Position numbers and translations under genes: made by a program. DNA of 60,631 nucleotides, counting the filler, from Hausera hauseri (Eukaryota): the NCBI GenBank assembly GCA_046269625.1. It is 11 parts of 11 records of this genome, joined end to end, with 100 filler letters (N's around TTAATTAATTAA, not from the genome) between each part and the next. Parts side by side here need not be neighbours in the genome. Positions count along the whole stretch, not along the records: positions 51,006 to 56,131 come from JBJURY010327161.1; 10 more parts are not named here. One strand, 5' to 3'. The notes under the pieces are model-generated. The model did not search any database, was not told the origin of the DNA, and worked only from the letters and a program-made list of their open reading frames with translations. Positions 1 through 59,689 of the stretch are shown in pieces. Every line of letters begins with the position of its first letter. Position 1 is the stretch's first letter.

Positions 1-13
1 CGAAGACTGGGAA

Positions 14-3398: not shown

Positions 3399-3399
3399 T

Positions 3400-26160: not shown

Positions 26161-26307
26161 ACTGAACGTATAGATCTGTCTATTATTGGAAAAGGCAAAC
26201 AGGGACAGCGGATGTGGTTCATGTGAGGCGGTAATGCTCGATCCCTCAGTAAAATCATTTGTTAAATGCGTCGTAAATAAAAAAAATATATACAATAATT
26301 AAATTAC

Positions 26308-26790
26308 TTTGCGTCCTTTCTGTCGGCTGAATGGATGTGTCGCAATTGTCAAGTTTGATGAAACACCTCTGGCAACTTCTCAGGAATTATACTGGAATTT
26401 TTCCTATTGGTATTTTGTTTATCCTTAAGAATCAGTGAACTGAATTCGGAAATTTCCGTTGGACTTACCTTTTTGGACAATTGTCTTAAACATACAATCA
26501 CAGCACGATGTAGCGACAAATGAGGACTGGATAGGCCATCGTACAAGTAATTAGTAAATGATGAAAGATTTATATCACAAGGATAAAACATATGAAGTCG
26601 CTGACCGCAGGAGACTGATTCAGCAATAGCATGCAACGAACAAACTGATGGTTTGTCAATGGAATTTGTGGGCCTTGTATGTCTGTTTTTGTTTTGAGTA
26701 TTGGCATTCGTTGAATGAGAATTGGATAAACGCCAGCGATTCATTTTGTGAAAACTTTACGAATCCATTTGATTCAAATAATGGACTCAT
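26308..26790 (-). CDS. HEATR5: HEATR5-like (HEAT repeat protein 5) exon, with an apparent 1-nt frameshift near 26365
   Basis: QRLHMFYPCDINLSSF..LSSPHLSLHRAVIVCLRQLSKK..EISEF matches the HEATR5A/B segment [37 protein letters not shown]. Donor gtaatt at 26307. Confidence 0.7.
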
Positions 26791-29800: not shown

Positions 29801-31576
29801 GGAGATGAATTTAAAACTTCGATGGAAATTGTTCCTACGGTAGCGTTGACACAACGAGGCGATATAAGCTCATTTTGAAAGATTCTTGGTATAAAAACGT
29901 CTATACAGTTATCTGTAAATATACTTCTGGCCTGTATAACCACCATGGAATTATGTGGTATTTTCTCCTTATGTCCTTTCAGAATGTTTGCTTTATCATA
30001 GTTAATTGGAATATCTTCGTTTCTAGGACAGATCGATTCTGATTGTAAGTTTATCTGAAATCCATTGAATTTTCTCAGTACATTTATATTTAAGAATTAT
30101 CGGGATTCTAAAGTTGTCACTACATCCAAAGTCACTTTAATCCTTTGACCGCAGTTCGGGTTTACATTTACAATTTCCATAAGGTTTAGTGCATTGCTGA
30201 AATACTGAAGTAGTACCTGCGCAATCATTTGAGGCTAATTTTATTTGATACTGAAATTCGTCTGGTATTGCGTGTTTCGCTATAAGAGAGACGCTGGCTC
30301 CCGTGTCATTCATCACATTTAGAATAAACGTGCTAAAGTGAACTGTTGTAGGCGGCCGATTATCTCTTATTAATTCAAGAAGGGTTAGTACGTCATGATC
30401 ATCTATGTATGTGGCTCCATCAAGTATAGCTAGCTGCACAATAATTTATTATTCCATTGTATAATATAACTGTCAAGCTGTCAAAAGATTGTGTATAATT
30501 TTCCGGCTCTTTCGATTGTTATTTGAGTTCGGTTAAACCTGGATAACAACTTATGCGTTTTGCTTTATTTTGTTGTGAATTATGAGGTTCGGTTGTTTAA
30601 GTCAGATAATTTGACTTTGACTTTCTAGTTGTGATTCAATATTATGACTGTCAGATGATTTATTTACCATTAATCGGTGGTGAGGTATATGTGGAATCAC
30701 ACCTAATTTAGGAGACATTGGCAAAGATGCTCGATTTTTTTCCATATTGTGCGTGTTAATAGATTGAAGTATTTCTTCTTGGGAATATCTTGGTATACTG
30801 CGTAACATCCTATACTCTCTTGGCATACGGATCTTTCAAGTTTGATAAACGGGGTAATTTACTAATCGGAATTGTTTTACTCTCATAAGGTACATCAGGT
30901 TTGTTATGATTGTTCTATAATTTGTTTTTTGTTATGGCAAATAATTTTTTCTTAGGAATTCCAGGTTTCGGATAATTTCCTGGTACATTATTGTTTTGAT
31001 GCATTTGTCCATATTCTTTCTTCCCGTTTCTTTTTCGGTATCCGATAAATGGAAGATCAGTTATCTTGACTGGGCGAAGTAGCCTTTTCTTTGTCATAAT
31101 CTTTTTTTGTCCATGTGTATACTGCAACTTGTGGATTTACTGGTAAACATTCGAGCATAAATTCGTCTACCTTGGAGAGTTGTTCACCGAGTAGAAATAT
31201 ATTTTTAGCTTTGGTTCGAGCTTCAATTATTACTGATTCGGAAATACTTTTGACCTGTGCCGGTTCTGTATCCTCAAAAATTTCTTGTCACTGAGGCAAA
31301 TTTTAACTTGTGTCAATATTATATTCGAAAAATTCGATCGACATCGGTATCTATTTTCTCAAGAATATTTCTTTCATCTGGAGTTAACTGGAGATTTTTT
31401 TCAAAAATTCTTCCGAGGTTTCGTAAGTTTTGTACATAACAGGGCTGGATTTCTTTTCAGTATTCATTGGTAACTCGTGTGTTGGAGTTCGACATGAACT
31501 AGCGTAATGTCCTACTTTGTTACATGGAAAGCATGTAGGCATACGCTCGATTTTATTTAAATCTTGTCTACTATCT
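26891..31576 (-). mobile_element. Heavily decayed Gypsy element (gag knuckle, PR, RT, RH, IN), related to the A/D/I/J family
   Basis: CFPCNKVGHYASSC at 31492-31533; VMNDTGAS protease; YIDD RT near 29070; IN C-terminus KKGESLKLTRTGQGP. Confidence 0.9.
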
Positions 31577-31676: not shown

Positions 31677-34600
31677 ACACCACAATAAGGCCACATTGCT
31701 TTCGTTCTCGGGGTGGGAATAGTGAATCCGTAATAAGGTCACAATGCCACACCACAATAAGGCCACATTGCTCTAGTTCTCGGGGTGGTAATAGTGAATC
31801 CGTAATAAGGTCACAATGCCTTTGTTCTGGGGGTAAGAAGAGTGAAACCACAATAAGGCCACATTGCTTTTGTTCTCGGGGTGGTAATAGTGAATCCGTA
31901 ATAAGGCCACAATGCTTTTGTTCTCGGGGTGGGAAGAGTGAAACCGTAATAAGGCCAATATGATTTGTGCACAGGGTGGCAATAGTGAAACAGTAAAAAA
32001 GAAACAATGCTTTTCTTCTCAGGAATGGATTAATGAAACCACAATAAGGCCACAATGCTTTTGTTCTCGGGGAGCGAATAGTGAAACCACAATAAGGCCA
32101 CATTACTTTTGTTCTCGGGGTGGGAAGAGTGAAACCACAATAAGGCCACATTACTTTTGTTCTCGGGGTGGGAATAGTGAATCGGTAATAACGTCACAAT
32201 GCCTTTGTTCTCGGGGTGGGAATAGTGAAACCATAATAAGGCCACAGTTCTTTGTTCTCGGGGAGCGAATAGTGAAACCACAATAAGGCCACATTGCTTT
32301 CGTTCTCGGGGTGGGAATAGTGAAACCACAATAAGGCCACATTACTTTTGTTCTCGGACTGGGAACAGGGAATCGGAAATAAGGTCACAATGCCTTTGTT
32401 CTCAGGGTGGGAAGAGTGAAACCACAATAAGGCCACATTGCTTTGTTCTTGGGGTGGTAATAGTGAATCCGTAATTAGGTCACAATGCCTTTTTTCTCGC
32501 GGTGGGAAGAGTGAAACCACAATAAGGCCACATAATTTTTGTTCTCGGGGTGGGAATAGGGAATCGGAAATAAGGTCACAATGCCTTTGTTCTCGGGGTG
32601 GGAAGAGTGAAACCACAATAAGGCCACATTACTTTTGTTCTCGGAGTGAGAATAGTGAATCGGTAATAACGTCACAATGCCTTTGTTCTCGGGGTGGGAA
32701 TAGTGAAACCAAAATAAGGCCACATTGCTTTCGTTCTCGGGGTGGGAATAGTGAAACCACAATAAGGCCACATAACTTTTGTTCTCGGGGTGGGAATAGG
32801 GAATCCGTAATTAGGTCATAATGCCACACCACAATAAGGCCACATTGCTTTCGTTCTCGGGGTGGGAATAGTGAATCCGTAATAAGGTCACAATGCCACA
32901 CCGATATAAGGCCACATTGCTCTAGTTCTCGGGGTGGGAATAGTGAATCCGTAATAAGGTCACAATGCATTTTTTCTGGGGGTAAGAAGAGTGAAACCAC
33001 AATAAGGCCGCATTGCTTTTGTTCTCGGGGTGGTAATAGTGAATCCGTAATAAGGTCACAATGCCTTTGTTCTCGAGGAGGGAATAGTGAAACCGTAATA
33101 AGGCCACAATGCTTTTGTTCTCATGGTGGGATAAATGAAACAGTAATAAGGCCAATATGATTTGTGCACAGGGTGGGAATAGTGAAACAATAAAAAAGAA
33201 ACAATGCTTTTATTCTCGGGAAGGAATTAGTTAAACCACAATAAGGTCACAATGCTTTTGTTCTTGGGGAGCGAATATTGAAACCACAATAAGGCCACAT
33301 TCCTTTTGTTCTCGGGGCGGGAATAGTGAATCGGTAATAACGTCACAATGCCTTTGTTCTCGGGAGGGAAAAGTGAAACCATAATAAGGCTACAGTTCTT
33401 TGCTTTCGGGGATAGAATAGTGAAAGCATAAGAAGGCAACAATGCTTTACTTCTCGGGGTGGAAAGAGTTAATCCATAATAAGGCCACAATGACTTGTTC
33501 TCCGGGCGGGAATAGTGAAACCATAATAAGGACGCAATGTTTTTGTTTTCGGAGTGGGAAGAGTGAATTAATAATAATGCCGCAATATCTTTGTTCTCAG
33601 GGAGTGAATAGCGAAACCATTATAAGGCCACAGTGCTTTTGATTCCGCGGTGGCAGTAGTTAAACCATAGTAAGGCCACAATGATTTGTTCTCGGTGAGG
33701 GAATATTGAAACCATAAAAGGGCCACACTGTTTTGTTCGCGGGGAAGGAATAGTGAAACAATAATAAAGAAACAATTCTTTTCTTCTGGTTCATGGATAA
33801 GTGAAACCATAATAAGGCCGCAATGCTTTTGTTATCGCGATGGGAAGAGTGAAATCATAATAAGGCCACACTGCTTTTCTTCTGGTTAATGGATAAGTGA
33901 AACCATAATAAGGCCACAATGCTTTTATTCTTGGGGTGGGAAGAGTGCAATCATAATAAGTTTACAATGTATTTGTACTATTGGTGGGAAGAGTGAAACC
34001 GTAATAAGGCCACATTGCTTTTTCCTCGGGGAGGGAATAGTGAAACCATAATGAGGCCACCGTTCTTTGTTCTCGGAGATAGAATAGTGCTTTTGTTCTC
34101 AAAGTGGGAATATCGAATCAGTAACAAGGCCACAATGCTTTTGTTCTCGGGGTGGGAAAAGTGAGACAATAATAAGGCCACAATGCTTTTTTTCTCGGGG
34201 TGGGAATAACGAATCGGTAACAAGGCCACCATGTTTTTGTTCTCGTGTTGGGAAGAGCGAAACCATAATAAGGCCACAGTTCATTTATTCTCGGGTCGGG
34301 AATAGCGAATCAATAACGAGGGCACAATGTTTTTAATCTCAGGGTGGGAACAGTGAATCCGTACGAAGGTCACAATGCTTTTGTTCTCGGTGTGGGAACA
34401 GTGTAACCGTAAGAAGGTCACAGTGCTCTTGTTCTTGGGGTTGGAATAGTGAAACCATAATTAGGCCACAACGATTTGTTCTCGGGGTGGTAATAGTGAA
34501 ACCATAATATGGCCACAGTGTTTTTATTTTCGAGGTGTAAATAATGATACCATGAAAATTCCACAATGCTTTACTTCTCGGGGTAGGAACAGTAAATCCA

Positions 34601-37600
34601 ACATAAGGTCACAATAATTTATTCTCGGGGTGGGAATAGTGAAACAATAATAAACCCACAATGCTTTTGTTCTTGGGATGGGAATAGCAAAACCATAATA
34701 AAAAATGCTTTTCTTCTCGGAAAGGGATAAGTGAAACCATAATAAGGCCACAATGCTTTTTTTCTCGAGGTGGGAATAGCGAAACCATAATAAGGCAACA
34801 ATGCTTTGTTCTCACGGTGGGAAGAGTGTAACCATAAATAGGCCACAAATTTTTGTTCGCCGGGTGGGAAAAGTGAGCCAATAATAGGGCCACAATGCTT
34901 TTTTTCTCGGGGTGGAAATAACGAATCGGTAACAAGGCCACCATGTTTTTGTTCTCGTGTTGGGAAGAGCGAAACCATAATAAGGCTACAGTGCATTTAT
35001 TCTCGGGTCGGGAATAGCGAATCAATAACGAGGGCACAATGTTTTTAATTTCAGAGTGGGAACAGTGAATCCGTAAGAAGGTCACAATGCTTTTGTTCTC
35101 GGTGTGGGAACAGTGTAACCGTAAGAAGGTCACAGTGCTCTTGTTCTCGGGGTTGGAATAGTGAAACCATAATTAGGCCACAGTTCTGTGTTCTCGGAGA
35201 TAGACTAGTGAAAGAATAATAAGGCCACAATGCTTTTATTCTTGATGTTGGAATATTTAAGCCATAATAAGGCCACAATTTTTTTTTCGGGGTGATAACA
35301 GTGAAATAACAATAAGGCAACAATGCATTTGTTCTCGGGGTGGGAAGAGTGAAACCGTAATAAGTCCACATTGATTTTGTTCTGGGCAGGGAATGGTGAA
35401 ACCATAAAAATGCCAAATTGCACTTATTCTCGGGGTGGGAATAGCGAAGCACTAATAAGGCCACAATTTTTTTTTCTCACGGTGGGAAGAGTGATACCAT
35501 AAAAAGGCCACAGCGCTTTTGTTCGCGGGAAGTGAATAGTAAAACCAAAATAATTCTACAATAATTTTTCTCGGGGTGGGAATAGTAAAACAATAAAAAA
35601 GCCACAATGCATTTGTTTTTGAGATGGGAATAGCAAAACCACAATAAACAAAAAATGCTTTTCTTCTCGGAAAGGGATAAGTGCAACCATGAAAAGGCCA
35701 CAATTTTTCTGTTCTCGGGGCGAGAATAGCGAAACAATAATGAGGCCACAGTGCTTTGTTCTCAGGGTGAGAAGAGTAAGACCATAATAAGGCCACAGCG
35801 CATTAGTTCGTGGGAAGTAAATAGTGAAACGAAAATAAGGCAACAATGATTTGTTCTCAGGATGGGAATAGTGAAACCATATTAAAGGAACAATGATTTT
35901 CTTCCCAGGAAGGGATTATTGAAACCATAATACGGCCACAGTGCGTTAACTCTCGGGGTGGCAATAATGAAACCATAAATAGCCCACAATGCTTTTGTTC
36001 TCCTGGTGGGAACAGTAAAACCGTAAGAATGTCACAGTGCTTTGTTCTTCGGGAAGGAATAGTGAAACCATAATAAGTCCTCAATGCTTTTCTTTTCGGG
36101 GTGGGAAAAGTAAAACCATAATAAGTCCACAATGATTTGTTCTAAGGGAGGGAACAGTGAAACCAAAATAGGGCCACAATGCTTTCATTCTCGGTGTGTG
36201 AATAGTGAAGCAATAGTAAGACCACAATACTTTTGTTCTCGGCGTGAGAATAGAGAAACCAAAATAAGGCCACAATATATTTGTTCGCGGGGTGGGAAGA
36301 GTGAAACCATATTATGGCCACAGTGCATTTATTCTCGGGGTGGGAATAATGAAACCATATAAATTCTACAATGCTTTTCTTCTAGGGGTGGGAAGAGGAA
36401 AACCAACATAAGGTCACAATGATTTGTTCTCGGGGTGGGAAAAGTGAGCCAATAATAGGGCCACAATGCTTTTGTTCTCAAAGTGGGAATATCGAATCAG
36501 TAACAAGGCCACAATGCTTTTGTTCTCGGGGTGGGAAAAGTGAGACAATAATAAGGCCACAATGCTTTTTTTCTCGGGGTGGGAATAACGAATCGGTAAC
36601 AAGGCCACCATGTTTTTGTTCTCGTGTTGGGAAGAGCGAAACCATAATAAGGCCACAGTTCATTTATTCTCGGGTCGGGAATAGCGAATCAATAACGAGG
36701 GCACAATGTTTTTAATCTCAGGGTGGGAACAGTGAATCCGTACGAAGGTCACAATGCTTTTGTTCTCGGTGTGGGAACAGTGTAACCGTAAGAAGGTCAC
36801 AGTGCTCTTGTTCTTGGGGTTGGAATAGTGAAACCATAATTAGGCCACAACGATTTGTTCTCGGGGTGGTAATAGTGAAACCATAATATGGCCACAGTGT
36901 TTTTATTTTCGAGGTGTAAATAATGATACCATGAAAATTCCACAATGCTTTACTTCTCGGGGTAGGAACAGTAAATCCAACATAAGGTCACAATAATTTA
37001 TTCTCGGGGTGGGAATAGTGAAACAATAATAAACCCACAATGCTTTTGTTCTTGGGATGGGAATAGCAAAACCATAATAAAAAATGCTTTTCTTCTCGGA
37101 AAGGGATAAGTGAAACCATAATAAGGCCACAATGCTTTTTTTCTCGAGGTGGGAATAGCGAAACCATAATAAGGCAACAATGCTTTGTTCTCACGGTGGG
37201 AAGAGTGTAACCATAAATAGGCCACAAATTATTGTTCGCCGGGTGGAAAAAGTGAGACAATAATAAAGCCACAATGCTTTTGTTCGCGGGAAGTGAATAG
37301 TGAAATAAACATAAGGCCACAATGCTTTGTTCTCGGGGTGGGAATAGTGAAACCGTAATAAAAGAACAATGCCTTTCTTCTCCGGATGGGATTAGTGAAA
37401 CCATAGTAAGGCCACAGTGTGTTTATTTTCCGGTTGGGAATAATGAAACAATAAAAAGTCCTCAATGCCTTTTTTCTTGGGGTGGGAACAGTGAAACCGT
37501 AAGAAGGTCACAGTGCTTTTTTCCCACGGGAGGAAATAGTGAAACCATAACTAAACTGCAGTGATTTGTTCTCAGGGTGGGAATAGTGATATATAATAAA

Positions 37601-39044
37601 AAACAATGCTTTTCCACTCGGAAGCGGATTAGTTAATCCATAATACGGCCACAAACATTTGTTCTCGTGGTGGAAAAAGTGAGACAATAATAAGGCCACA
37701 ATGCTTTTGTTCTCGGGAAGTGAATAGTGAAATAAACATAAGGCCACAATGCTTTGTTCTCGGGGTGGGATTGGTGAAACCGTAATAAAGGAACAATGCC
37801 TTTCTTCTCCGGATGGGATTAGTGAAACCATAGTAAGGCCAGAGTGTGTTTATTCTCCGGGTGGGAATAATGAAACAATAAAAAATCATCAGTGCCTTTG
37901 TTCTCGGGGTGGGAACAGTGCAACCGTAAGAAGGTCACAGTGCTTTTGTTCGCGGTGTGGGAACAGTGAAACCGTAAGAAGGTCACAGGGCCTTTGTGCT
38001 CGGGGAAGGAATAGTGAATCCATAATTTAGCAAGAAGGATTTGTTCTCGGGGTGGGAATAGTAACCCACAAAAAAGAAACAATGCTTTTTTACTCGGAAA
38101 CGGATTAGTAAAACCATAATGCGGCCACAGTGCTTTTATTTTCGGGGTGGGAATAAAGAAACCATAAAAAGTCCACAATGCTTTTGTTCTTGGGGTGAGA
38201 ATAGTGAAACGATAAAAAGGCCACAATGATTTGTTCTCTGGGTGGGAAGAGTGAATCCGTAATAAGGCCACACTGCATTTGTTCTAGGGGAAGGAATGGT
38301 GAAATCATAGTAAGGCCAAAGTGCTTTTATTCTCGGCGTGGGAATAAAGAAACTATGATAAGACCACAATGTTTTTGTTCTCGGTGTGGGAAAAGTGAGA
38401 CAAAAATAATGCCACAGTGCATTTATTCTCTGGGTGGGAATAGCGAATCAGTAACAAGGCCACAATGTTTTTGTTCTCGGGGTGCGAATAGTGAAAACAT
38501 AATAAGGCCACAATGGTTTTATTATCGGTGTGGGAATAGTTAAACCATAATAAAGCCACGATTTTTTTTCTCGGGGTGATAATATTAAAACAATAATAAG
38601 GCAACAATGCATTTATTCTCGGGGTGGGAATAGTGAAACAACAATAAAGCACAATGCTTTTTTCTACGGATTGGAATAGCAAAACCATAATAAACAAAAA
38701 ATGCTTTTCTTCTCGGAAGGGGATAAGTGAAACCAAAATAAGCTCACAGTGCTTTCTTTCGGGGTGAGAATAGCAAAACCATAATAAGGCCACAGAGCTT
38801 TTCTTCTCGGCGAGGGAATAGTGACACTATAATAAGGCCACAGTTCTTTGTTTTCGGGGATAGAATAGTGAAACCATAATAAGGCCACGGTACTTGTGTT
38901 TTACGGGGAGGAAATAGTGAAACCATGATAAGGCCACAATGATTTGCTCTTGGGGTGGGAATAGCGAAAAGATGATAAGGCCACAAATTTTTGTTCTCGG
39001 GGTGGATAAAGTGAGACAATAATAAGGACACAATTTTTTTATTC
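31677..39044. repeat. Satellite array of a ~48-bp monomer (~150 copies)
   Basis: Consensus ATAAGGCCACAATGCTTTTGTTCTCGGGGTGGGAATAGTGAAACCATA fills the whole contig. Confidence 0.97.
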
Positions 39045-43994: not shown

Positions 43995-45505
43995 AAATTT
44001 TATCCGTATTTTCATATACGTTCTAGTAGCTTCATTAGTCTTGAACCAGATACATGGTTTCTTCCAATCTATGTCGTAAGCTTTCATTGTCTTGAGGTTT
44101 TCTATGTCCTTTTGTCCTTCCCTAATTTGTTGATCTAACTTAATTTTAGCCTCTCTTCCTTTCTTACTGATTCCGTAGATATCTGCTAAACTAGATTCGT
44201 CGTGCCACCATTGGGCTTGTGTCTTTGGAACATAAGAGGCGATTAAGGATAATGCTAGGATTATCTGTACGTAGGATACTGGTCTGTTAACTATGGCTGA
44301 TGTTTTTGTTTTCTTTTTGTCTTGATTTGGTTTTAGATTCTGATCTCTGGATCGTAAATTATATTGTCTGTTTGGTCTTATTTCTGTTTTAACAACTCTT
44401 TGAACGGAGATTATCTCTTCTTTTCCGTTTTTATTAATATATATAGTAGTTGGTGTGGTTCGAACAACTTCATAAGGTCCTCTTCCGGTACGAGTGAGCT
44501 TTAAGGACGTACCTTTCTTTGCTACTGGATAGTGTACGTAAACCCAATCTCCCTTTTCTAAATCATGAGGTTTGGCTTTCTTATCGTACTGTTTCTTAAA
44601 CTGTTCTTGATATTCCCTAGATACCTACTTTGCTATTTCCAACGCTTTTATAATCTCGTATGCAATACTTCAACAAATTTCTGTTCTAAATCTTCTGGAT
44701 TTAACATACACGGTGTCATGCCTAAATCCGTTGGTAATATGACATCTTGTCCATACATCATGAAAAATGATGTAAATCCAGTTGCGGGATGTGGCGTGGT
44801 ATTTATAGAAAATCAAGTTCCTTCTAAAAATTCATTTCAATCTTTTTGATCTTTTGCCATTACTGTTGACAAAATTCGTATAACTTGCATTCATTCGTTC
44901 AACAATTCCGTTACATTGAGGATAGTAAGCTGTCGCAGATAATCGTTCAATTTCAAATATTTTGATGATCATATCGAATAATTCGCTTGTAAAAATGCTT
45001 TTTCCATCTGTTAAAATCTGTTCGGGAGGTCCATATCTGCACATAATTTTTCTTACTACGGCTTCTTCCAGAGTTAGATGGTCAATAAACGTCAAAAAAT
45101 ATTACATTTGTGAGTGGTGGTTAACGGTCCTACAATATCCATGGACATTGCTTGCATTGACCTATCCGGTAAGATTATCGGTTTCAACTTAGCTATTCAA
45201 TATTGCACTTTTCTTTGTTTAGTTGCGCATACTTCACAAGCGTTCACCCAATTCTTTACATCAATATAAATGCTTGGCTAATAATATTTAATATTCTTTG
45301 TAATGTCTTTCCAAGATATGTGTCCAACTAAGTATGATTCGTGTTCGGCCGTTAGTACTTCTGTTCAGTCCTTTTGGTATAACTACTAATTTCTGTCCCT
45401 TGCGTTCGTAGTATAAAACGATTTCATGAGTATTGCCATCCTTTACGCAGTATTTACGACCGAGTCTCTGCAAATGTTTTCGTAATTGGTAGCCTTCTGG
45501 CATAA
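43995..45505 (-). pseudogene. pol: Integrase continuing in frame into a signal peptide and ectodomain
   Basis: Open frame from ~44623 to 43995: ..GRGPYEVV..RQYNLR..PVSYVQIILALSLIASYVPKTQAQWWHDES..PCIWFK. Confidence 0.88.
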
Positions 45506-45509
45506 TGTC

Positions 45510-46110
45510 TTTTTCTGTAAATTCAATAATTTAATTGGAGTTGGAGCATTATTTACTAATCTAATCATCACACGACCTGACGATACCCTCGTTAATACAT
45601 TACTGAGTATGATGTTTGGATTCAGCGTTTCTTTTGGTTCGAAATACACTGGCTGATCATCGTTTTGACGAATCTCTGTTCTGGGTGGGATATTTGCATC
45701 CACTGGAATCCATACTTCTCCGGATTTTCTATCTTTGATGATTTTTACTCCTTTTATTGGTCAAAGTTCTATTAATTTTCCTGCATAAAAATCTATTGCT
45801 CCATTTGGTAACTGTGTCAGTAAATCGTATCCTAATATTACATCGTCAGTTAACTGTTCCATTATTGAGAATTCATGATGAAATGATAATCCCATCATGT
45901 GAATTTCAGGATTCCATCTGTATTTACATCTCGATAACTGGCCAAAAGTTCCAGTTTTTCCTGGTCTGCTGCTGGTAGCAGATACAGTTGTTTTCGTAGC
46001 ATTTGTGGTATCGAGTCGTGTTTGATCAGTGATATTTCAGATCCTGTACCGATTACTACAGAGACCTCCCAGTCTTCAATATGAATTTTAGAGAAAGGTC
46101 TTCCTTCTAT
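45510..46110 (-). pseudogene. Aspartic protease plus dUTPase-like spacer
   Basis: GRPFSKIHIEDWEVSVVIGTGSEISLIK; IPPRTE..YFEP..IRLVNNAPT, matching copy A. Confidence 0.85.
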
Positions 46111-46789
46111 TGTGCCATAACAATTTGGTAAATCTTTAGTGCTTAATTACTGATAATTTATACCCATTTCTGGAATTGTAACTGGTTCATCAATTAATTG
46201 CCTCAATTCTCCATTCGGATACAATTCATTATTTACATAATTGACCGTCTCTGTTTCTTGACTTCTAATTATTGTTTGTGGTTCTTGACTTTTGAAAGTT
46301 TGCATTTCTTGGTCTCTTGACAATGTTGATCTGGTTTCATTGGCTCCATGTATTTTTGTAAAATATAGTATTCTATGGTCATCAAATGAATGGTGTCTGT
46401 GCGGTGCAGATGTACTTCTTGTTTCACGCATTTTCGTAATACACCATAGTGTTTCGTTCCTTCATAAGGATCATCAAAATTAAATGGTTTTCTAGATTTC
46501 CGTTTAATATGAACTCGCTGATCGTTTGTCACAATATTCATATGCTGGTGCAGTTGGAGGTAACATAGGCAATGGTGGTTTTATGACGGAATATGCTTTG
46601 TCTGTTTATTCTGGAAACGGCATCTCTTATCTTAGGCTAGTCAAAATCTGAATTATTTCTTCGCGTTTTTAGATTAATAAATTTTCGTCCGTAATTAAAG
46701 GTGGGTCTTTTCCGTCGTTTACGATTATAGTAGCCAAAATGTCCTTCTACATCGTTTTTCCATCTACTTTCTTCGTAGACCTTTAAAAA

Positions 46790-48500
46790 TTTACCGAAAG
46801 GTGTTATGATCGCAGTTAAAAATTTGCACGAAAATCGTATCAGCGTAAATGTCTCACTCATTTATGATTGGTTGAATTACTGCTTTGACTGATTGTACTA
46901 GAAAATATATTGGTAGAAATCCAGATGCGGCTTGTCAAGAAATTAGGAATCTTCCCACAATTTTATAAGGTTTCTGTAGTCACTCTTCGGTAGTGCTTAG
47001 TATCAAGTAACGATTCCCATTTTGCTTGATACCGTGTGCCTTCTAATACTGTATACATCGCTCTGTTTATGTTGACGTTGGAAAGCTAGAAACTGTCTAA
47101 TTGCTTAGACTTCTTTTGGTCTATAAATACTTTTAGTTGCAGTGTCATGGAATTTGTCATCTGTCATTCCTTTCACTAAGTTAGTTTCTGTCAATATACT
47201 GGGCGGAGTGGTTATACCTTCGTTCGGTAAACTCATCCATTCCGTTTCGTTACGTGTGAACATAGGTACTCCTCAGCTTGCTTTGCATTCTTTTAGGACT
47301 GTTGGTTCAGTCTAATTTGCCAAGACAGCTCCAGTAAGTGGCATTTCCAACCTTGGTGTATTTTGGTATAAAACCGGAAGTTCTTCTATACATCTCTTCT
47401 ACATTGATCGGAACATCTCATCACATTAGCAAGTTAGGAAAACTTCACCGGTGACTCAACCAAAAATGCCTTCTTCCATTGGAATTATTGGTGATGCTAA
47501 CTCAATATTGGCATATATCAAGTCTAGTTTAGTTCTCATAATTTCCATATCCAGTTTACAGTCGTCCGTTACCATTTTGTGATACAATTCGATTATTCTG
47601 GCTTGTTCTTTGTAATAGAAGTAATCATCTACTTTTCAAATAATCGTCGATTCGTACGTCGTGTCAAGTTTGAAAATTTTAGAATCTAATTCTTTTTCGG
47701 TTACAAAGAATGCTTCGTAATTAGTGACATACATTATAACAGCGCATCGTGAACACAGCCTTATTGATAAATTTTAACCCATGAGCATCCGATACTAAAA
47801 TAGTTTCCATAGATTGCACTACCACATCCTCTCGCGATCTCATTGCCATCTGCCTTATTTAAATATCTTTTCCTTGAAGTTTCGTTAAATGTTAATTCTT
47901 TAATTTTAATAAAGTTTCAATCTGTTTTTAGAAGGTTGTTCCCATACTATAATCGAAATTCTAAAAGCACAAGTGCCGTCTTATATATGGCATTTCTCAT
48001 TTTCATTGTAGAGCTTAGTAAAACTATGGAACATCGCTTGCTGCGTTCGCATGTGGGTCTCGTAGAAATTAACTACTACTACACCCTCTTCTTTTCCTTT
48101 TCCAGTATCGTATTCAGCTCCAGTACATAGTCCTGTGTGCATGTATAATTTTCAAAGCGCTCCTTTGAATGATCTAATTATTTTTCCTTAATGCAATTCC
48201 AGTTCCATACCTTTCCATGCTAATCTACCAGTTTCTTTAGCTTGTTTACAGTGCTGTCTTTCCAAATTCATTGGGATCGGCTGAATGTTTGGCTTTATTA
48301 AATGCATGAATGTCCATGCATTTGTCCACAATGGAAAATACTACGAGATCTAGGTAACATACATTCTATTCCGAATTCATCTAATACTCTACCTCTAAAA
48401 TAGAGTCGATAATTTACGTCACTTTTAGCATCGTTATTATCCATTGTTTTACATCTCTAACAGATGAAGCCGTTGTGCACTCACATTCTTTCTCATCCAT
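46790..48500 (-). pseudogene. env: Chuvirus-G/herpes-gB-like class III fusion glycoprotein (env-like)
   Basis: Colinear motifs: SVRDVKQ(C); ECML.RSRSIFHCG.MHGH; ERQHCK; GLCTGAEY..GVVVV; IVWEQP; MYVTNYEAFFV; ELYHKMVTDDCKL; GIFG.VTGEV; CIEELPVLY; ATKSIY..RQFLAF; membrane region QAASGFL.IYFLVQ..FSCKFLTAII. Confidence 0.85.
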
Positions 48501-50359
48501 CCACTCGGATGACACCTTTACTTTTAACGCCACATCGGGTTTAGCCCTCAAGATTTTAGCATCTTTTATTAAGAGTTTTGGCACAGCACTATAAATCGTG
48601 TTTTCGCTAGATAATTTAGTTTAAGTATGAATAAATCGTCTTAACGTATTTTCAGCGAAATTTACGTTAATAAGTTCAATTAAATGTCTCTCAGTTAGCG
48701 CTGGATCCAGAATAATTTCTACACTGAATCTTCGATTCTGTGGGTACATATTTGTTTCATACAGGTGTACTGAAGTTTTCGGATTTCCGTCGATCATTGA
48801 ATTCAAATATGCATCCCATTCTGGATCGTTTTCGTTTTCTGGAGTTACATTGTCAATTAATTGCGTATCTGATTGTCGTGTTACGTCTACGTTTTATGCC
48901 ATCTCTCTTCGCATAATTTCTGATAAAATTCAAGCATTAGAATTGTCCGGAAACAGATTCCAGTCCCACAAACACCATGTAACAAGTTCAACAACTGATA
49001 GTTCATCTTCTTGGATGATTCCTTTTTCTGTGCAATTGGTTAATTCGGATATTACTTCATATTGCCATCTTTGTACAAACTCTGATTTGTTGGCCATTTC
49101 TGATTCAGTGAGAGCTTATTTATTCCTGTAGACTTCCACGTCTTTGACAAATTTCTATTTTTCTTTCGTCCATACGAATTTGGGTTTTCTGAGTATGACG
49201 TATCAGGCTTTGTAGCTGTCTCATTTTCTCATCGTTAACTTCGGCTATTTCTACTAATAACAACTTTAACCTGCTCATTTTCTTTAACGATTTGGCGTCA
49301 GGGTTGATTTTTTCAATCAATTTTTTTATAAAACTAGTTTCTGCGAAAGTGAGTTGATGGTCTTCCACTATTTCTATTAATTCGTCATGCTATTTTTAAT
49401 CTGATCCAGGCATCCATCTAGATGGATTTTGCAGAAATTTAACACGTCTGCAAAAGAGTTCTAGTAATCCGAACAAATCTCTAATATCTTACATTCTTGT
49501 GTTGTGATCTCGTTTATGGGTTTTACCGTTAGATTCTGTATTCCTTCTAGATGAAAATTCCTAATTATTGGATAAAGGTCACAAGTTCTACTTCGCCTTG
49601 TTGAGAAGTTTAATTCCAGTCATTTGGTAGATTTCACGTAACAACGATGTCTCGTTTTTGCTCATTCAGATGCATTCGTATACCTATTTCTGTTCTCAAT
49701 GTCTAAATTTCGCATAATTTCGTTTATTTCCTGTTTCAGGGTCGACTGGACATATGGATATTCTTTCATACGCTTAAGAATTCGTCGGTTTAATTCGGTC
49801 AATAGATCATACCATTCCTTCAATTGGTTATCAATTACCGGTTTGATCACTTGCTCTATCTAGCATTTTGTGACAGTCTTTTAACCTGTCATCTGGACCT
49901 TCTATAAGACCCATAATTTGTTTGACAAAGTTAAACTCATTTTTATATTCATCGAATTCCAGAATACAAGCTTCAATTATAGCTTTTGTGTCGTCATTGT
50001 TTAAGTTCATTATTCGGTTCCTTATGCAATAAATTTCCGACCACTTGCCATTTTCTTCCTCGATGTGAGTTTCGATATTCCCATATGGCTTAGGTTCAGT
50101 AAACGCAATTCACATCATCGCCATCAGAGGTGGGATATCTACCGCATCAATACTCAATATTTTCAAGTTAGTTTCGTTTCGCGAATCAAACGGTTTCTCT
50201 TACAGGTAGGTAACTATATCATATCTTGCCGCACTCAGCAATTTGTTCGGATTACCGTTTACTCGCTTTGATTGTGGATTTTCTAACGTGGGTATTAACT
50301 CGAGCCTTAGTTATTTTCTCACCAATGTGATCCCAGTCTTGGTTCATGATTCTGGAAGA

Positions 50360-50905
50360 TTAGTTCCACTTTTTATCCAGATTTAATTCAGTTTTCCAAT
50401 TCTCTATCAAGTCAATTGACTCGCCCAATTTTTCTTCATTGAATGACATTAATTTCGTGTACATTCTTTCAGTGAACTGCTGTTCCTTGCCAGAAATATC
50501 CACTTCTAATATCATTTCGAAATCTTGAGCTAACTGCAAAGTTTTATCAAAGTTTTCTGGTCGAGCTAAAATAAAATGTTTTAATAAATCGCTAGACCAA
50601 ATACCATTAATTAGTTGCGTCGTCTTCATGACGTCTAAATCAAGGAGTTGCTTTTCTGCGCAACTACATTAACTAATCTTAAAGTATTCACATAACTATT
50701 TGCAAGCTTCTTTAATGCAAATGCAAACTGGGTTACCGATTCACCCTTCTGTTACATTCTAATCTGAAAAGCAAAGTTTTTGTTGCGAGGTCACCGTCGG
50801 TAATAATTTTCGACTTAAAACTCCTACCAGGGAAGACCAAGATTTCTTCTCATCGTTAGTGAGTTCACTATAGGCATCAGCAGCCAAATTTTTCAAATAT
50901 AATGA
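50360..50905 (-). pseudogene. gag: Retrotransposon Gag (capsid) domain
   Basis: YLKNLAADAYSELTNDEKKSWSSLV..; GESVTQFAFALKKLA; QLINGIWS..PENFDKTLQLAQDFE. Confidence 0.8.
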
Positions 50906-51199
50906 NNNNNNNNNNNNNNNNNNNNNNNNNNNNNNNNNNNNNNNNNNNNTTAATTAATTAANNNNNNNNNNNNNNNNNNNNNNNNNNNNNNNNNNNNNNN
51001 NNNNNTTTTTCGGTTAGTGCTATTGATCCTATTTTCGGTATATACGAAGCAATTAATGACAAGGCGAGTATTACCTGTGCATAGGATATCGGTCCGGTTA
51101 CTATCGTCGACATATTCTTGTTTTTCTTTGAAGGATTTATACTTTCTTTACTCAAACGCAGGTTGTAGCGCTTGTTTGGTCTTATTTCCGTTCTAACTA

Positions 51200-54100
51200 C
51201 TCTTTGGATGGACATAATCTCTTCCTTATCGTTTTTATTAATATTAACTAGTTGGTGTGGTCCGAATAACCTCGTACGGTCCTCTGCCTGTACGAGTGAA
51301 TTTCAAGGATGTGCCCTTTCTTGCAACCCAATTCCATTGTTCTAGATCATGTGGTTTGGCTATATTATCATACTGCTTCTTAAACTGCTCTTGATAATCT
51401 GGATAATTCTTTGGCTATTTCCCAACACTTGCGTAGTCTCGTCTGTAACACTTCCACAAAATTCCGTTTAAAATCCTGTGTGTTCACTGTATACGGTATC
51501 ATTCATAAATCTGTGGGCAGCGCAGCTTCCCTGTATTACATCATGAAAAACGGGGTGAATCCCGTTGCAGGATGTAGTGTAGTGTTTATGGCGAATTGCG
51601 TGCCTTCTAAAAATTCGTCCTAATCCTTTTGGTCTTTCTCCACTACGGTTGGAATGATTCGTATCACTGTCGCGTTCATTCATTCAACCATTCCGTTACA
51701 TTGAGGGTGTTAAGCTGTCGTGGTTAGTCTTTCGATTTCGAATATTTTGGTAATTTTTTAGAATAATTCACTCGTGACGTTTCTTCCTCGGTCTGTCAGA
51801 ATTTGTTCAGGAGGTCCGTATCTACAGATAATTTTCCTCACTAATGCTTCTACCAGAGTTTTGGCTTTCTGGTCCATTAATGCTATCAGTTCGACGAAAT
51901 GAGTTAGGCGATCTACACACGTTAGAATGTAATTGTTATTTTTTGAGTGGTAGGTAATGGTCCTACAATATCCATGGACATTGCTTGCATTGGTCTATCC
52001 GGTACGTCTATTGGTATAAGTTCGACAATGTAGTTTTTCACTTTACTTTGTTTTGTTGCGCATACTTCACACTCATTTACCCAATTTTTCACGTCTATGT
52101 ATATGCTTGGCCAATAATATTTATTTAGTATTTTCTCTAAGGTTTTCTTTCATGACATGTGTCCGTCTAAGTAGGAGTCGTGTTCGGCCATTAACGCTTC
52201 TGTTCGTAATTATTTTGGTATGACTACTAATTTGCGTCCCTTGCGTTCATAATACAGTATGTTTCCATGATTTCCGCTTCCTGCTACGCAATATTTATGA
52301 CCGTGTCTTTGTAGGCGTTTCCGTAATTGGAGCTCTTTTGGCATTCGGTTATTTTCAACATTTTCGATGATCTGTTGTATGACTTTGTCTTTCTTCTGTT
52401 CGACTGAAATTTTAACTGCTTTATCCAATGTTAGAGTGTGTTGTCTGTCTAGTAGTTCTTCGAGCTGAGTTTTTCTCATTACAGTAATTGCGCTCGTTTT
52501 AGTTTTAAACTTTGATAGTGCATCAGCATCAACATTTTTGCTTCCAGGTTTATGTTTAAATTCAAAGTTATACCATGAGATCTCTTCTATCCATCGTTTG
52601 AGTCTACAAGTGGGGTTATTTGCTCGGTCCTTCAAGGTTGTAACTGCCTTATGATCCGTAGCAATTATAATCTTCTGTCCGTAGACGTATACGTTAAAGT
52701 GTCGTAGAGCTTCTTTTACAGCTAACGTTTCTAATTCCGTGACCGAGTATTTCTTTTCGGCCTTTTTTATTGATCGTCCTCGTACGCGATCGGGTATTCT
52801 AGTTCTTCGTCTTCCCGTTTTTGGGCCAACTCATACCCGATGCCCTCTTTGCTTGCGTCCGTTTTAATTATGAAAGGTAGATTAAAATCAGGATATCTCA
52901 ACACAGGTTCACTAGTCAAGATTTTCTTCATTTCGTCGAAAGCTTTTTGTTCGACATCGGTCCATTTTCATTTAACTCCTTTTTTAAGTAAGCGATACAA
53001 AGACGCATTTATTCTTTAATTGTCAGGAACATAAGTGGCATAATACCCATATAAACCTAACTAATGCCTTAGCTCCTTCTGATTTCGAGGTTCCATGAAA
53101 TCTGATATTTTACTTAACAGCAATTTATCGGGTCTCGATCCCCCTTCTCCGACTATATGTCCGAGATAAGATGCGGCATTTTGAGCCCATTTACATTTCT
53201 TGGGGTTCAATTTCAATACGGCTTGTTCTATCCTCATAAGTGTATCCTCAATATCCTTCAAATGTTCTTCTTCTGTCCTTGACGCGATCATTACGTTGTC
53301 TAGATACGCGAATACATGTTCCAATCCCATTAACATCCTGTTCATCATTCGAGTAAAAATGGCTGGTCCGGTAGTTATCCCGAATGGCATGACATTAAAT
53401 TCTTATACACTGTTGTGTGTCTTAAATGCAGTTTTATAACGATTTTCTTCCTTTATTTCTACCTGCCAATATCCGGATTGCAGATCAAGTGTGGTGAACC
53501 ATCTAGCTCCGGAGAGTCTGTCTAAGGCTTCTTTTACGGAAGGTAGCGGAAAAGAGTCTTTCATCATAAGTGTATTTAACTCTCGATAATCGATACAGAA
53601 TCAATGTTTCGTGGTATCTTTCTTCTTATCCATAAGTATGGGTGAGTACCAGGATCTATAGCTTGGTCTAATTATGTCAGCCTTTAACATTCGTTCTACT
53701 TCCTTCGTTATTTCCGGTCTTAATGAGTGGGGCAGATGATACCATTTCGGCATTTTCTGGTCTTCTAAATCTATTTCATCACTGGAGCCAAGCTTTTTCT
53801 TAAGTGGAATCGTTAGTCTTAAGGTTTTAGCTCTGCCAATATCTTCTTCATCTCTGGAAATAACCAAGTTATAATGGCAAGGTAATTCGTAAAATCAACA
53901 ATATGCTTCGGGTGAGAATTTAGTTTCGACGTGAGGTGGAAATTCCGCACATTTGTAAGGTTCGATAGTTATTGACGATACTCTATACGTATGATCCAAG
54001 GTGGTATTGGCGTACAGTTTGAATGGAGTTAGTACATTATTAACTATTCTAATGGGCACACGGACTGTCGATACTCTGGTTAAAACGTTACTGAGTATAA

Positions 54101-54610
54101 TGTTCGGATTTAATGATTCTTTTGGTTCAAAGTATACTGGTTAGTCGTCGTTTTGATGGGTCTGAGCGTATACTAGCACCTCTGTGCTAGGTGGAATGTT
54201 CTCATCTACTGGAATCCAAACTTCTCCGAACTTTCCAACTGTGGTGGTTTTAACTCCTCTTATCGGACCAAGTTTTATTAACTTTCCTGCATGGAAGTCT
54301 ATTGTCATATTAGGTCATTGTTTCAACAAATAGCATCGTAAGACTACATCGTCTGTTAACTGTTCCATTACTGAAAATTTGTGATGAAATTATTATCCCA
54401 TCATGTGAATTTCTGGCGTCCATCGGAATTTGCTTTCCGATGACTGTCCAAAAGCTCCGACACTCTCCGAGTCCGTTGATGAGGGTGGATACAGTTGTCC
54501 TCGCGGGAGCTGCGGTATTGAATCATATTTTATTAGAAATATTTCAAATCCTGTGTCTATTAACGAGTAGACTTCCCAATCTTCCAACTGAATTTTTGCG
54601 AAGGGTCTAC
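51200..54610 (-). pseudogene. pol: Gypsy pol PR-RT-RH-IN
   Basis: SLIDTG; WYSPILM; MPFGITTGPAIF..YLDN; TDASK; KPGSKNVDADALS; IN core. Confidence 0.95.
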
Positions 54611-55269
54611 CTTCGATTACCAAGCCGTAGTAATTTGGCGCTAATTTTTGATGTTGAACCGTTGATACCTTATAGCCGTTAATTTTAACTTCAGTGGTGG
54701 CAACTGGCTGGTTGATCAATTGTTTTAACTCTCCAAATGGGTACAATTCATTATTCGTACCATTTACGTTTTCCGTTTCCCAACTTCTAACCCATATTTG
54801 TATATTCTGGTTTCCGAAATTCTGCGTTTCCTGGTCTCTTGAAAATGGTCGATCGTATTTCATTCGATCTGAGTATTCTAGATGAATAAATTATGCCGTG
54901 ATCGTCGACGGCCGAGCGACGATATGGGGCAGACGTTCTTTTCGTTTCGTGGACCTTACGTAATATACCGTAGTGCTTTGTTCCATCGTAAGGATCTTCA
55001 AGGCTAAACGGTTTTCTGTAGATATCTGTTTGATATGAGCTCATAGATTGTTTCTCACAATCTTCATATATAACTGCAGTTGGCGGTAATATTGGTAATG
55101 GTGGTTTTACGATGGAATAGTTTTTGTGTATATTTATCTTGGAGACGGCGTCTCCTCTCTTAGGCTCGTCATCATCTGAGCTGTCTCTTCGTGTCTCCTT
55201 TTACGTTTTCAATTGTGATAGCCAACGTTTTGTTCCACATCTGCTTTCCATTTACTTTTCTCATAAGGT

Positions 55270-56015
55270 CTTAAGAGTTTGCCGAAGGGTGTGATAATAG
55301 CCGTTAGGATTTAGCACGAGAATCTTGTCAAGGTAAATATCTAATATCCATTTATAATCGCTTGAATAATTGCTTGAACCAGTTGAATTAAGAAATAAAT
55401 GGCCAGAAATCCTGATTCGGCTTGTCCGAATATCAGAATCCTTCCCCAAATTTTATACCGTATCTCTGTTGTTACTCTTTGATAGTAGTTAACACCAAGT
55501 AATGATTCCTATTTTGCTTGATAAAACTTGTCCTCTAGTATTGTATGCACCGCTCTGTTTAATTCATGTGTGCGTTGGTGTGGAAAATCAAGAAATTGTC
55601 TAAATACTTTTACTTCTTTCGGTCACTAAATACCCTTTGCTGCAGTATCTTGAAACTTATCATCAGTTATTCCTTTTATTAAATTTGTTCCCGTTAACTT
55701 GGTGGGCGGAGTAATTATACCACCATTTGGAAAAATTTATCCAATCGGTTTCGTTTCGTCTAAACATCGGTTCTCCTAAACTGGTCTTGCGGTCCTTTAG
55801 AATTGTAGGTTAAGTGGAGTTTGCCAGTAATACTCTAGTAACTGGCGTTACTAATCTCGGTGTGTCCTGATATATTACTGGAAGTTCTTGTATGCATCTC
55901 TTCTCCTCTACATTAATGGGTACATCTATTTTCTCGCATTCATAAGTCAGTAGGACTTTTCCGGTCACTCGACCAAAAATGCCTTCTTTCATTGGAATTA
56001 TTGGTGATGTTGAGG
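55270..56015 (-). pseudogene. env: C-terminal half of the chuvirus-like glycoprotein
   Basis: GIFGRVTGKVLLTYECEKIDV..RCIQELPVIYQDTPRLVTPVTRVLL; AAKGI..FRQFLDFP; KIWGRILIFGQAESGFLAIYFLIQLVQAIIQAIING. Confidence 0.85.
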
Positions 56016-56413
56016 TCACGTAACAAATCGGATTGATTTTGCATAGATTATGACTTTTATGCTGAATGACTATAGGCATTGACTATGACACTATCATGTT
56101 TACCGACTTTTCTGAATGTTTACTGACTTTTNNNNNNNNNNNNNNNNNNNNNNNNNNNNNNNNNNNNNNNNNNNNTTAATTAATTAANNNNNNNNNNNNN
56201 NNNNNNNNNNNNNNNNNNNNNNNNNNNNNNNTCTGGTAAAAACTTTCTTTAATGCCTTAATCTATGGATAGACAGTAGTGACATTGGACAAATAATATAA
56301 TGTGCTAACACTTTGAAAAATCCCACGTTTCGCCATTGATCAGCTATGTACTTTTCCATTGATTACAACATTGTTTTTTTCTCAATTATTTTCTTATTGA
56401 AGTAGTTATTCTT

Positions 56414-57502: not shown

Positions 57503-58435
57503 TTAGAGCAACGGGAGCAACAAGCACTCAAACACACAAGCAAACGACCAGCCGTCTGTGTAAAGTCTTGCATATTTTCCCCCAATGCTGAGTTCAGGTT
57601 CAATGAAAGTTGCTAAGCACATAACAACACTAGGAATGTAGCACACAATTAAAATAGTTGCTATTACAACAACTATTGTTACTGTCTTCCTGTCGCGGCT
57701 GGACATTGTTTCTAATTGTTTCTTGTTGAGGCTAGCTGTCTTCCGCCAGTCATTTTTCTGGCTTAATTTTTTAGTTAGAATTATTGTGAACATTACAACA
57801 GTAAGGAAAGATAATGAAGCTGAGACGGCATGCATTACAACTGTTGCTCCTTCGACTGTCACACTATTGCTTGTGAAACCCAATCCAAGAAGTGTTTTAT
57901 TTTTGTCTGGATGGAACCTCAGTTCAATATACGTGGTACAATAAATGGGCACGAAGGACAAAAATGTTAAGCTGTAAATACCGATCATACATGTTGCAGT
58001 CCTTCTTGGGGTGATCATTTGTTTGACTTGTAGGGGGTACGCTATACAAAAGAATCTTTCCGCTGTGACGTAAGCAGTGATAACACAAGTTATTCTGGAG
58101 AAACATTCACGCGGAACTCCAGCAACGATGAACTGGATCCCGGAAGAAACTGGAGGCACACCTAATCTCTCAAACCACGGACTGACAAACACGTTGTAAG
58201 ATAGCTGCATTAGCAAGCTGCAGAAATCAGAGATGGCCATGGCAAAGAAGCTGATGTTGATTGTTGTATTTAAGCCTTGCCTATGATATACCATAAGATT
58301 GATGATATTTGCAAACAGACCAAACACACTTATAGCACCACAAATAACCACATAATTTACTATTTGGATTATTTCGATACTTTCTATAATTTCTGTGTTT
58401 TGTGAATGACCTCGCTTATCACTTTCTGCGACCAT
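57503..58435 (-). pseudogene. Intronless rhodopsin-like (class A) GPCR of the gastropod chemosensory-receptor type, truncated in TM7
   Basis: FGLFANIINLMVY, NISFFAMAISD, YVTAERFFCIAYPLQVKQMITPRRT, LIVCYIP. Ends WSFACVFECLLLPLL* with no NSSVN/NPxxY. Confidence 0.88.
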
Positions 58436-59689
58436 ATTGTAAATTCATGTGTTTAATATATTTTTACAAGTATAGATTTGTCGCCGTTAAAAAAGATTCC
58501 GACTGAAGCACCGAAACCATTGTTATTGTTTTCATTTGAACTTATTTCAATCTGCATTCTATTTTGTTTATTTGGAATGCATATATACTTGCAAACAGAA
58601 AGGGAAACATTGCTTTTATAATTATTGTCTTTGTACATTTATTTTGATTTGTTTTATCCGCCGTGTTGAAATTATAAAAATTATAACCTTTTTTTTTTTT
58701 TTTAAATTACATGAATGGGCTAGTTGTTAGACGTGTACCCACCAAGTGTGTGATCTGCGGCTGTGCTTTTTCATGCTTTTGTGCGCGTTCTCCTTAATTA
58801 TAATGTATTGATGAAGTATTTGCACTGAAAACATGTAGCCTAAATTGCTACATTCGTGCCGTAAACTAGTGATATTTTCAATAATTATACTCTAAGAATG
58901 AAGAATAAAGTCGTGACATCTGCTATTCAGCGACAGGTTTCAGGTCAAATCAATATATTAAATTGTTTCGTTGTAATCTTTTACATTTTAATATTAAGGA
59001 TTCGTGATGTTTACATTACTCCTGTTGATACGGTTAGTTATAAATTGTATAATTCACATTTAGTGCTGATTTTTGCCGTGAGACAGCAATAAATATAATA
59101 ATTTAGCATTCTTGAACTCCATCATGACGATCAAGTGCGTGCTTTCTGATTTTATTCCATGATGTTCTCGACAGAGAGGTTTGCCAAAGAAGTCGATAGA
59201 AAAGCTAGTCATCTGAGTAGGTAGAGGGTGATACATTCATAGAAGACGGGATCAAGAGTGCAGAGTCGGACAAAATTTCGGAACCGACTCCAGCTCTAGA
59301 TGGTATACCAAAGAAAACTTAGCAACAAACAGTAGTAAGACTAGTATGCGGTTCTTGCATGCTGTCTGTCTACATGAAAATGTTCTTTTTTTTTCAGGAT
59401 ATTTATTTTTCTATTTTCCATTATCTACTAGTTCGACACGTCTCAATAATTAATCTACTTCACCAACTATTTCTTGCTCCGGGAACAAAGGGCCATCATT
59501 GATGTACTTCTGACCATCCAATGCGTCCATTCTGTTCCCGTGATGTATTCACTACGTTAATCTCTGCGTTAATACGTTAACCATTGTTGGAATTGTGACC
59601 CTCATCTGCTCCAATGGATCCATTGTAAAGCATATCTGTCAATGTAAGTTTTCACTCCGCTTAGTGTGTGTCCTACAGAACACAGGCAA

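Follow-up and report, generated by a model that had tools for sequence, protein, structure and literature searches.

Our results indicate that the envelope glycoprotein G and Pol of a decayed retroelement were very probably encoded in one reading frame, as an earlier note on this DNA had proposed. This reading draws on a codon-phase comparison of two copies and on natural proteins in which G, protease and reverse transcriptase (RT) follow each other. The window, which is the whole stretch of 60,631 nucleotides analyzed here, consists of 11 contigs with N spacers between them. It contains four copies of the element, A on the plus strand and D, I, and J on the minus strand, with pairwise identities of 68–73% (about 70% for I versus J). 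The contigs that carry the element are 4–7 kb long, and both element ends are present on none of them. I corresponds to 43995–50905 and J to 51006–56131; all positions given below for these two copies are on the minus strand. We consider it likely that all four are inactivated copies of a gag-env-pol type Ty3/gypsy element.

Reading phase from G anchor to protease

I and J were aligned pairwise, each ungapped block was scored in three phases, and blocks of at least 30 nt were counted; between the membrane anchor and the catalytic motif, the phase was picked without use of stops. From the anchor to the protease D/GTG, no stop is common to I and J in the best phase (9 blocks, 309 codons), against 26 shared stops in the two other phases of the same region. 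Mismatches in these 309 codons amount to 83, 60, and 140 at codon positions 1, 2, and 3, and at each of the 8 frame changes between anchor and protease the frame is retained by one of the copies. The linker was therefore coding and under purifying selection, in the phase that the earlier note had picked, as judged from the stops, the mismatches, and the retained frames together. All four alignment settings gave the same result for this region. Over the whole I/J overlap, the 16 blocks of at least 30 nt all lack a shared stop in their best phase, and the codons of G itself show purifying selection between the two copies. As an internal control, A and D were compared in the same way, and here an in-frame stop common to both was detected, where the last membrane protein ends.

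The motifs named in the earlier note are present in the window, and its statement that the lesions of I and J fall at different places, with no common stop between the G anchor and the protease, is confirmed. Between anchor and protease, J is interrupted by stops (55343, 55313, 55211) and by changes of frame close to 55200 and 54850. In the same region of I, stops are found at 46937, 46639, 46506, and 46138; its changes of frame lie close to 46976, 46859, 46606, 46494, 46435, and 46170–46114. The claim that I is open from the transmembrane segment (TM) to RRNNSDFD holds from the second, weaker hydrophobic segment but not from the main anchor, which is in another frame and carries a stop. A stop at 55136 in J, aligned with one in I, was considered as a terminator of G and rejected as an off-frame by-product, one of the shared off-frame stops counted above.

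Glycoprotein G, its tail and the junction with Pol

G matches PF24664 (Monjiviricetes fusion glycoprotein) at 46883–47731 in I (E 5e-8) and in two frames of J (E 8e-16 and 1e-5), the frames being read with X at stops. A profile built from 12 natural relatives follows G from 48438 to 46842 in I and from 56013 to 55110 in J. By these matches, G is a chuvirus-like gB-type fusogen of the PF24664 family. I retains a broken ectodomain with its anchor (46842–48438), delimited by PF24664, the profile, and hydropathy. J retains a broken C-terminal half (55110–56013; profile matches at 55633–56013 and 55110–55715), upstream of which the contig ends. The main anchor of J lies at 55353–55409 (Kyte-Doolittle hydropathy 2.2 over 19 aa) and is the sole peak of at least 1.7 between G and the integrase. 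It is followed by a weaker hydrophobic segment at 55284–55340 (1.45 in J, 1.23 in I) that is presumably membrane-adjacent rather than spanning. The same pattern is found in 12 relatives examined, with one strong anchor (1.63–2.43) and a weaker second segment (0.73–1.71).

Natural database proteins related to the G or Pol of the window (labels P00xx) were compared as proteins, and spliced gene models are possible among them except for P0058 and P0099, whose sources are known (contigs of 6.2 and 6.6 kb). A HMMER search with the G of I returned 47 matches, 45 of which contain PF24664. In 10 matches, a Pfam retropepsin lies behind G in the same protein, and 5 of these 10 also contain RT and RNase H. 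P0066 (Retrotrans_gag) and P0062 (zf-CCHC, a CCHC knuckle) present a Gag-side domain, then G, then the protease in one protein. A quick tree of G (41 rows) has a branch marked 98* that parts the G of the window from stand-alone G proteins and from those located after RT; the rows nearest to the window are G-then-protease proteins or fragments. A word-based search with the G tail of J found none among 189 candidates (proteins up to 2000 aa), and a prokaryotic genome collection contained no relative of P0058.

These relatives display further variation. Two to five tandem retropepsin-like domains are found behind G in P0052, P0053, P0056, P0059, P0062, P0066, and P0021, and P0056 has another one after the integrase. 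The accessory domains located between Gag and G vary among P0063, P0052, P0070, P0062, and P0097, as they do in Burro. In P0063, a Bcl-2-like stretch precedes G (Pfam/PDB), and in other relatives Bcl-2-like, ubiquitin-like, and exonuclease-like stretches were recognized by eye.

In J, the cytoplasmic tail and linker of G (54790–55200) form 137 open codons that are proline-rich and contain TSAP at 54925–54936, a motif found in the tails of both copies. I has in addition a PTAP in the tail (46546–46557), which is not retained in J. An LYPx3L motif is present in the protease frame of both copies, at 54726–54746 in J (the catalytic Asp follows 62 residues later, by a count made by eye) and at 46204–46224 in I, thus about 60 residues before the catalytic motif in each. 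Of 12 fusions, 11 have a YP motif in the linker between anchor and protease, for the most part 30–56 residues before DTG; YP occurs 14 times in 1757 aa of linkers compared to 40 times in 20586 aa elsewhere. Among stand-alone G proteins, 7 out of 10 carry YP or P[T/S]AP within their last 60 aa. The motif thus reads as marking the point where the G tail formerly ended, and the whole linker as an enlarged G tail. The motifs PTAP, PPxY, and YPXnL are described as late domains, by which ESCRT is recruited in budding (PMC7995964). By motif likeness, those of the tail may have a late-domain role as well, in linkers that are proline-rich and proteins that are kin to each other.

One junction deserves a closer look. 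Where the tail passes into the linker, I is longer than J by 40 nt; continuity at this point is therefore read from I, the copy with the most frame lesions, and, as far as these two copies go, either state may be the older one. The longer stretch of I (46670–46718) contains a slippery-type heptamer of the XXXYYYZ form (46678–46684), phased to slip into the Pol frame and followed by a stop two codons on. G could have ended some 20–25 codons past the anchor, with Pol reached by a −1 frameshift at this heptamer; I would then have become continuous by an extra small lesion and J would display the old −1 relation. In 2289 codons of other coding sequence, heptamers of this type number 9, which gives a chance of about 6.5% per 17 codons. 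In J the frames of G and linker do stand in a −1 relation, I has many losses of 1–2 nt, and P0061 stops 74 aa past the anchor column. However, no folded structure was detected behind the heptamer (z from +0.85 to +1.81, in a decayed sequence that weakens the test), and this scenario requires two events where a single frame needs one. About 150 codons downstream, the Pol frame contains the LYP motif of the G tail, and with the old tail end in the protease frame a single frame is favored over a frameshift directly after the anchor. Relatives point the same way: of 16 HMMER matches at E ≤ 1e-10, 5 fragments end before the anchor, 9 go from the anchor to DTG, and 2 end soon after it, so that 9 of the 11 close relatives that pass the anchor read through and only P0061 and P0063 stop shortly after it. 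We judge this scenario quite improbable, and a −1 frameshift at the tail-linker junction in general barely less so, the small share of belief that we retain for it reflecting the one junction read from I and its heptamer.

An accidental proximity of G and Pol was weighed as well, either as a chuvirus-derived insert or as the 3′ env of one element beside the pol of another. Fragments of chuvirus-type G are often located beside LTR elements (PMC10084718), and a pol-env order with the PF24664 family does exist (P0044). However, the whole junction is common to two copies that are 30% apart and shows selection at the codon level, by which an accident is already refuted, and the G tree sets the window away from both after-RT and stand-alone G. 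We therefore hold this explanation to be extremely improbable, and the single frame for G and Pol remains our preferred reading.

Gag side, Pol and the last membrane protein

Putative capsid-like remains of Gag lie in I at 50500–50884, where in pairwise comparison 2 of 3 fragments resemble Gag regions of natural proteins (highest z 7.3 and 5.2, versus 300 shuffles); neither a 4-sequence Gag profile nor Pfam gave a match in this region. The order in I is Gag-like remains, about 2.4 kb without assigned domain, G, linker, and protease, and the order in I and J places env between gag and pol. No Burro-type domain (BCL2, BIR, MATH, ankyrin, dUTPase) was detected in the 2.4 kb interval of I, where decay lowers the sensitivity, and a profile of the Bcl-2 region had no match in the window. 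A ubiquitin-like reading of 48300–48893 in I was dropped (best z of six comparisons 2.1, no Pfam match).

The earlier note had also proposed an alternating topology. This fits the relatives: a hydrophobic h-region lies just before G in all 12 (best 12-mer 1.94–3.45), these have one strong anchor, and P0054 and P0056 possess a further signal peptide after the integrase and a last TM. On the other hand, no signal peptide was found before G in I, the sole and decayed copy that covers the Gag-G region, where the best 12-mer within 400 nt upstream does not exceed 1.14. With the many stops that I carries there, this could mean that Gag was a separate ORF or was joined to G by recoding, with only G and Pol in one frame, or that the lineage had lost the signal peptide and G was already nonfunctional. 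Yet a Gag-like N-terminus is joined to G in single proteins (P0055, P0062, P0066, P0074, and P0099, with Pfam support for two), other large deletions exist in I, and the selection on G codons argues against a dead G. Both variants are unlikely in our view, and a frame that runs from Gag through G into Pol is preferred.

Pol follows the order protease, RT, RNase H, integrase, which is that of Ty3/gypsy elements (Metaviridae). The retropepsin of J (about 54300–54620, ends approximate; DTG at 54549–54557) is homologous to an ORF of copy A that matches PF00077 (E 3.5e-4); the protease ORF of J (54396–54890) has no Pfam match of its own. Broken RT, RNase H, and integrase were located in J at 51250–53800 by tblastn with P0054 and P0058. 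I (44196–46130; alignment and tblastn) retains the start of the protease, the integrase, and the second signal peptide, and has a deletion of about 1.7 kb in RT/RNase H near 45500. Copy A (2–4879, plus strand; Pfam and hydropathy) contains protease, RT, RNase H, integrase, signal peptide, an FN3-like stretch, and a TM, and ends with a stop at 4877–4879.

A search with RT/RNase H of A returned 49 generic Ty3/gypsy matches of 34–45% identity and no close relative. In two quick trees (298 columns; 57 rows and a hand-picked subset of 28), RT/RNase H of A and J form a long branch outside the G-then-protease clade. A joint clade of the window RT with this group was not rejected (AU p 0.30), the tested group including P0021, a sequence without G that was added after the first tree. 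Troyka was dropped as an identity for the element, no Troyka having an envelope according to PMC12440569.

Downstream of the integrase, J shows a signal-peptide-like stretch at 51048–51104, which is also present in A, D, and I; the integrase end and this signal peptide are in one frame in all four copies. A and D are broken between the late signal peptide and the last TM, and the link at this point is taken from the relatives. D (18730–21510, minus strand; Pfam, hydropathy, and folding) contains integrase, signal peptide, and a 312-aa ORF with an FN3-like stretch and a TM, ending at a stop (18810–18812) that is followed by a stem-loop. A distant copy, C (13391–15304, minus strand; frame reading), contains an FN3-like/TM ORF, a single stop at 14606–14608, and then a 405-codon ORF in the same frame. 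In the last luminal domain, columns of C, C, L, T, and Y are common to all six rows compared (three window copies and three database proteins), so that all six have the signature columns of FN3, a seven-stranded beta sandwich with the signature L-x-P-x-T-x-Y. The FN3 label given to this protein is suggested by a PDB profile search (best E 0.02) and an Atlas score of 0.83, but the structure models have low confidence (pLDDT 43 and 49) and Foldseek found no match for them. We take 9 of the 13 PDB profile rows to be FN3-bearing proteins. The FN3 identity of the domain is a candidate, to be treated as a lead.

The stop that ends the last membrane protein reads TGA-CAA in A, TGA-CTA in D, and TGA-CGG in C. 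UGA-CGG and UGA-CUA are described as read-through contexts of type II, often accompanied by a stem-loop on the 3′ side (PMC3159437). Past the stop, the frame shared by A and D is open over 32 of 32 codons with few third-position changes (10/9/5), and a third-position bias appears further on. A stem-loop is predicted 12 nt behind the stop in D (z −4.6); it is weak in A (−1.5) and absent in C (−0.6), each value being the best of two window sizes. The UGA-C stop at 4877–4879 (plus strand), 18810–18812 and 14606–14608 (both minus strand) is thus a candidate read-through site. As a separate observation, the ORF behind the stop of C (13391–14605, minus strand, 405 codons) is DEDDh-exonuclease-like according to Atlas (0.89, a lead) and had no Pfam match; it has a short match to 18509–18572 of D (z 6.1). 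DEDDy ORFs have been described in LTR elements of rotifers (PMC5408684).

The rest of the window carries other material. Pfam identified host genes, namely two ORFs with TRAF/MATH domains (6328–6879, plus strand; 8078–8581, minus strand) and an intronless rhodopsin-family receptor (57506–58444, minus strand). The latter, an intronless 7tm_1 receptor on contig K, presumably resembles the receptor expansions of heterobranch gastropods. Contig G consists of tandem repeats of a 48-nt unit in a long, degenerate array (31677–39044). On contig H (39500–43500, minus strand), ORF remains look by eye like a Polinton/adintovirus polymerase B with accessory genes, 3 pieces having no Pfam match. Contigs E and F (21636–26790 and 26891–31576, minus strand) carry other, more distant decayed Ty3/gypsy pol genes.

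Proposed polyprotein and known systems

In the model that we propose, the active ancestor would have made one polyprotein starting with Gag, an accessory region, an internal signal peptide, and a gB-type G with one anchor and a long cytosolic tail. It would continue through protease, RT, RNase H, and integrase and, after a further signal peptide, end with a small luminal domain and the last TM. Signal peptidase would cut at the two internal signal peptides and free G and the last membrane protein, for which flavivirus polyproteins provide an analogy of release. Pol would start out tethered to the G tail, G trimers would bring the tethered proteases together, and the protease would release itself just behind the LYP motif. 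PTAP/YPxL-type motifs of the tail would recruit ESCRT, placing the budding signal on G and not on Gag, and Gag, G, and Pol would be made 1:1:1. Within this model, the family of G, the gene order, the one selected phase from anchor to protease, and the same order in natural single proteins are what the comparisons show, and the full order and frame of the polyprotein are in our opinion likely. We infer the processing by signal peptidase and protease and, with less confidence than the order and frame, the budding. A wider picture would be that of a mollusc retroelement lineage with a flavivirus-like, signal-peptidase-processed polyprotein of four membrane crossings, two different surface proteins (a class III fusogen and an FN3-like partner that may bind receptors), budding through ESCRT late domains on the fusogen tail with Pol tethered behind them, and UGA read-through into a DEDDh-exonuclease-like protein; taken as a whole, we regard this picture as doubtful.

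In retroviruses, Gag, Pol, and Env are as a rule made in unequal amounts, from separate frames or RNAs, and an env lying between gag and pol in a single frame breaks this rule. The earlier note had called the arrangement unusual for an LTR element, which is true, but it had already been described (PMC6431247; PMC13524379). The layout being known, the apparent novelties here are the long-branch Pol, a host that is probably a gastropod, the late-domain-like motifs of the tail, a further membrane protein after the integrase, and the UGA-C stop common to three copies. In the literature covered, where subscription journals are thinly represented, we found nothing on late domains in such a G tail, on an FN3-like second membrane protein, or on read-through in these elements, and the papers covered do not address the cleavage, orientation, or budding of a gag-env-pol polyprotein. 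Small, direct tests are available for the tether of the protease, the late-domain-like tail, the UGA-C stop, and the second membrane protein; intact natural relatives are better study objects for this than dead copies.

The GAG-ENV-POL errantiviruses of Chary and Hayashi (2026; PMC13524379) combine, as here, a Ty3/gypsy Pol with a gB-type env between gag and pol, and the gB/chuvirus-type env that defines them is found in I and J as PF24664. Of the signal peptide (or TM) and the TM that enclose the ectodomain in those elements, the window copies show the anchor, and no signal peptide was found in I. The Schmidtea ENV rows of supplement 2 of that paper look by eye like our top matches. In its text, figures aside, the terms polyprotein, in-frame, frameshift, read-through, late domain, fibronectin, and cytoplasmic tail do not occur. 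It reports the gB-type GAG-ENV-POL arrangement solely for Nematoda, Bryozoa, and Platyhelminthes, its mollusc rows being F-type in 46 of 46 cases; if the host of our copies is a gastropod, the layout would extend to a fourth phylum. Non-canonical nematode ERVs (Sacco et al., 2022, as cited in PMC13524379) are also Metavirus elements with a captured RNA-virus glycoprotein and env before pol, and a single-ORF topology may already have been described for them. Anakin (Dezordi, 2020; PMC7642597) shares the glycoprotein source, a chuvirus G, but belongs to BEL/Pao and arthropod hosts and not to Ty3/gypsy.

Burro/GYPSM1, a giant gypsy element of planarians (Arkhipova and Yushenova, 2019; PMC6431247), presents a comparable layout, with env in frame between gag and pol, after BCL2 and before the protease; in the window, the G-Pol part of it is supported. 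Its ORF1 of about 4,900–5,100 aa contains MATH, BIR, ankyrin, BCL2, and dUTPase domains, unlike the copies of the window, and the Burro section of that paper mentions no second membrane protein. Burro env was tied there to gypsy Env/F by HHpred, with mononegavirus matches also noted, whereas the G of the window is PF24664. The Bcl-2-like stretch before G in P0063 parallels the BCL2 that precedes env in Burro, and on this ground Burro env and the G described here probably belong to the same family.
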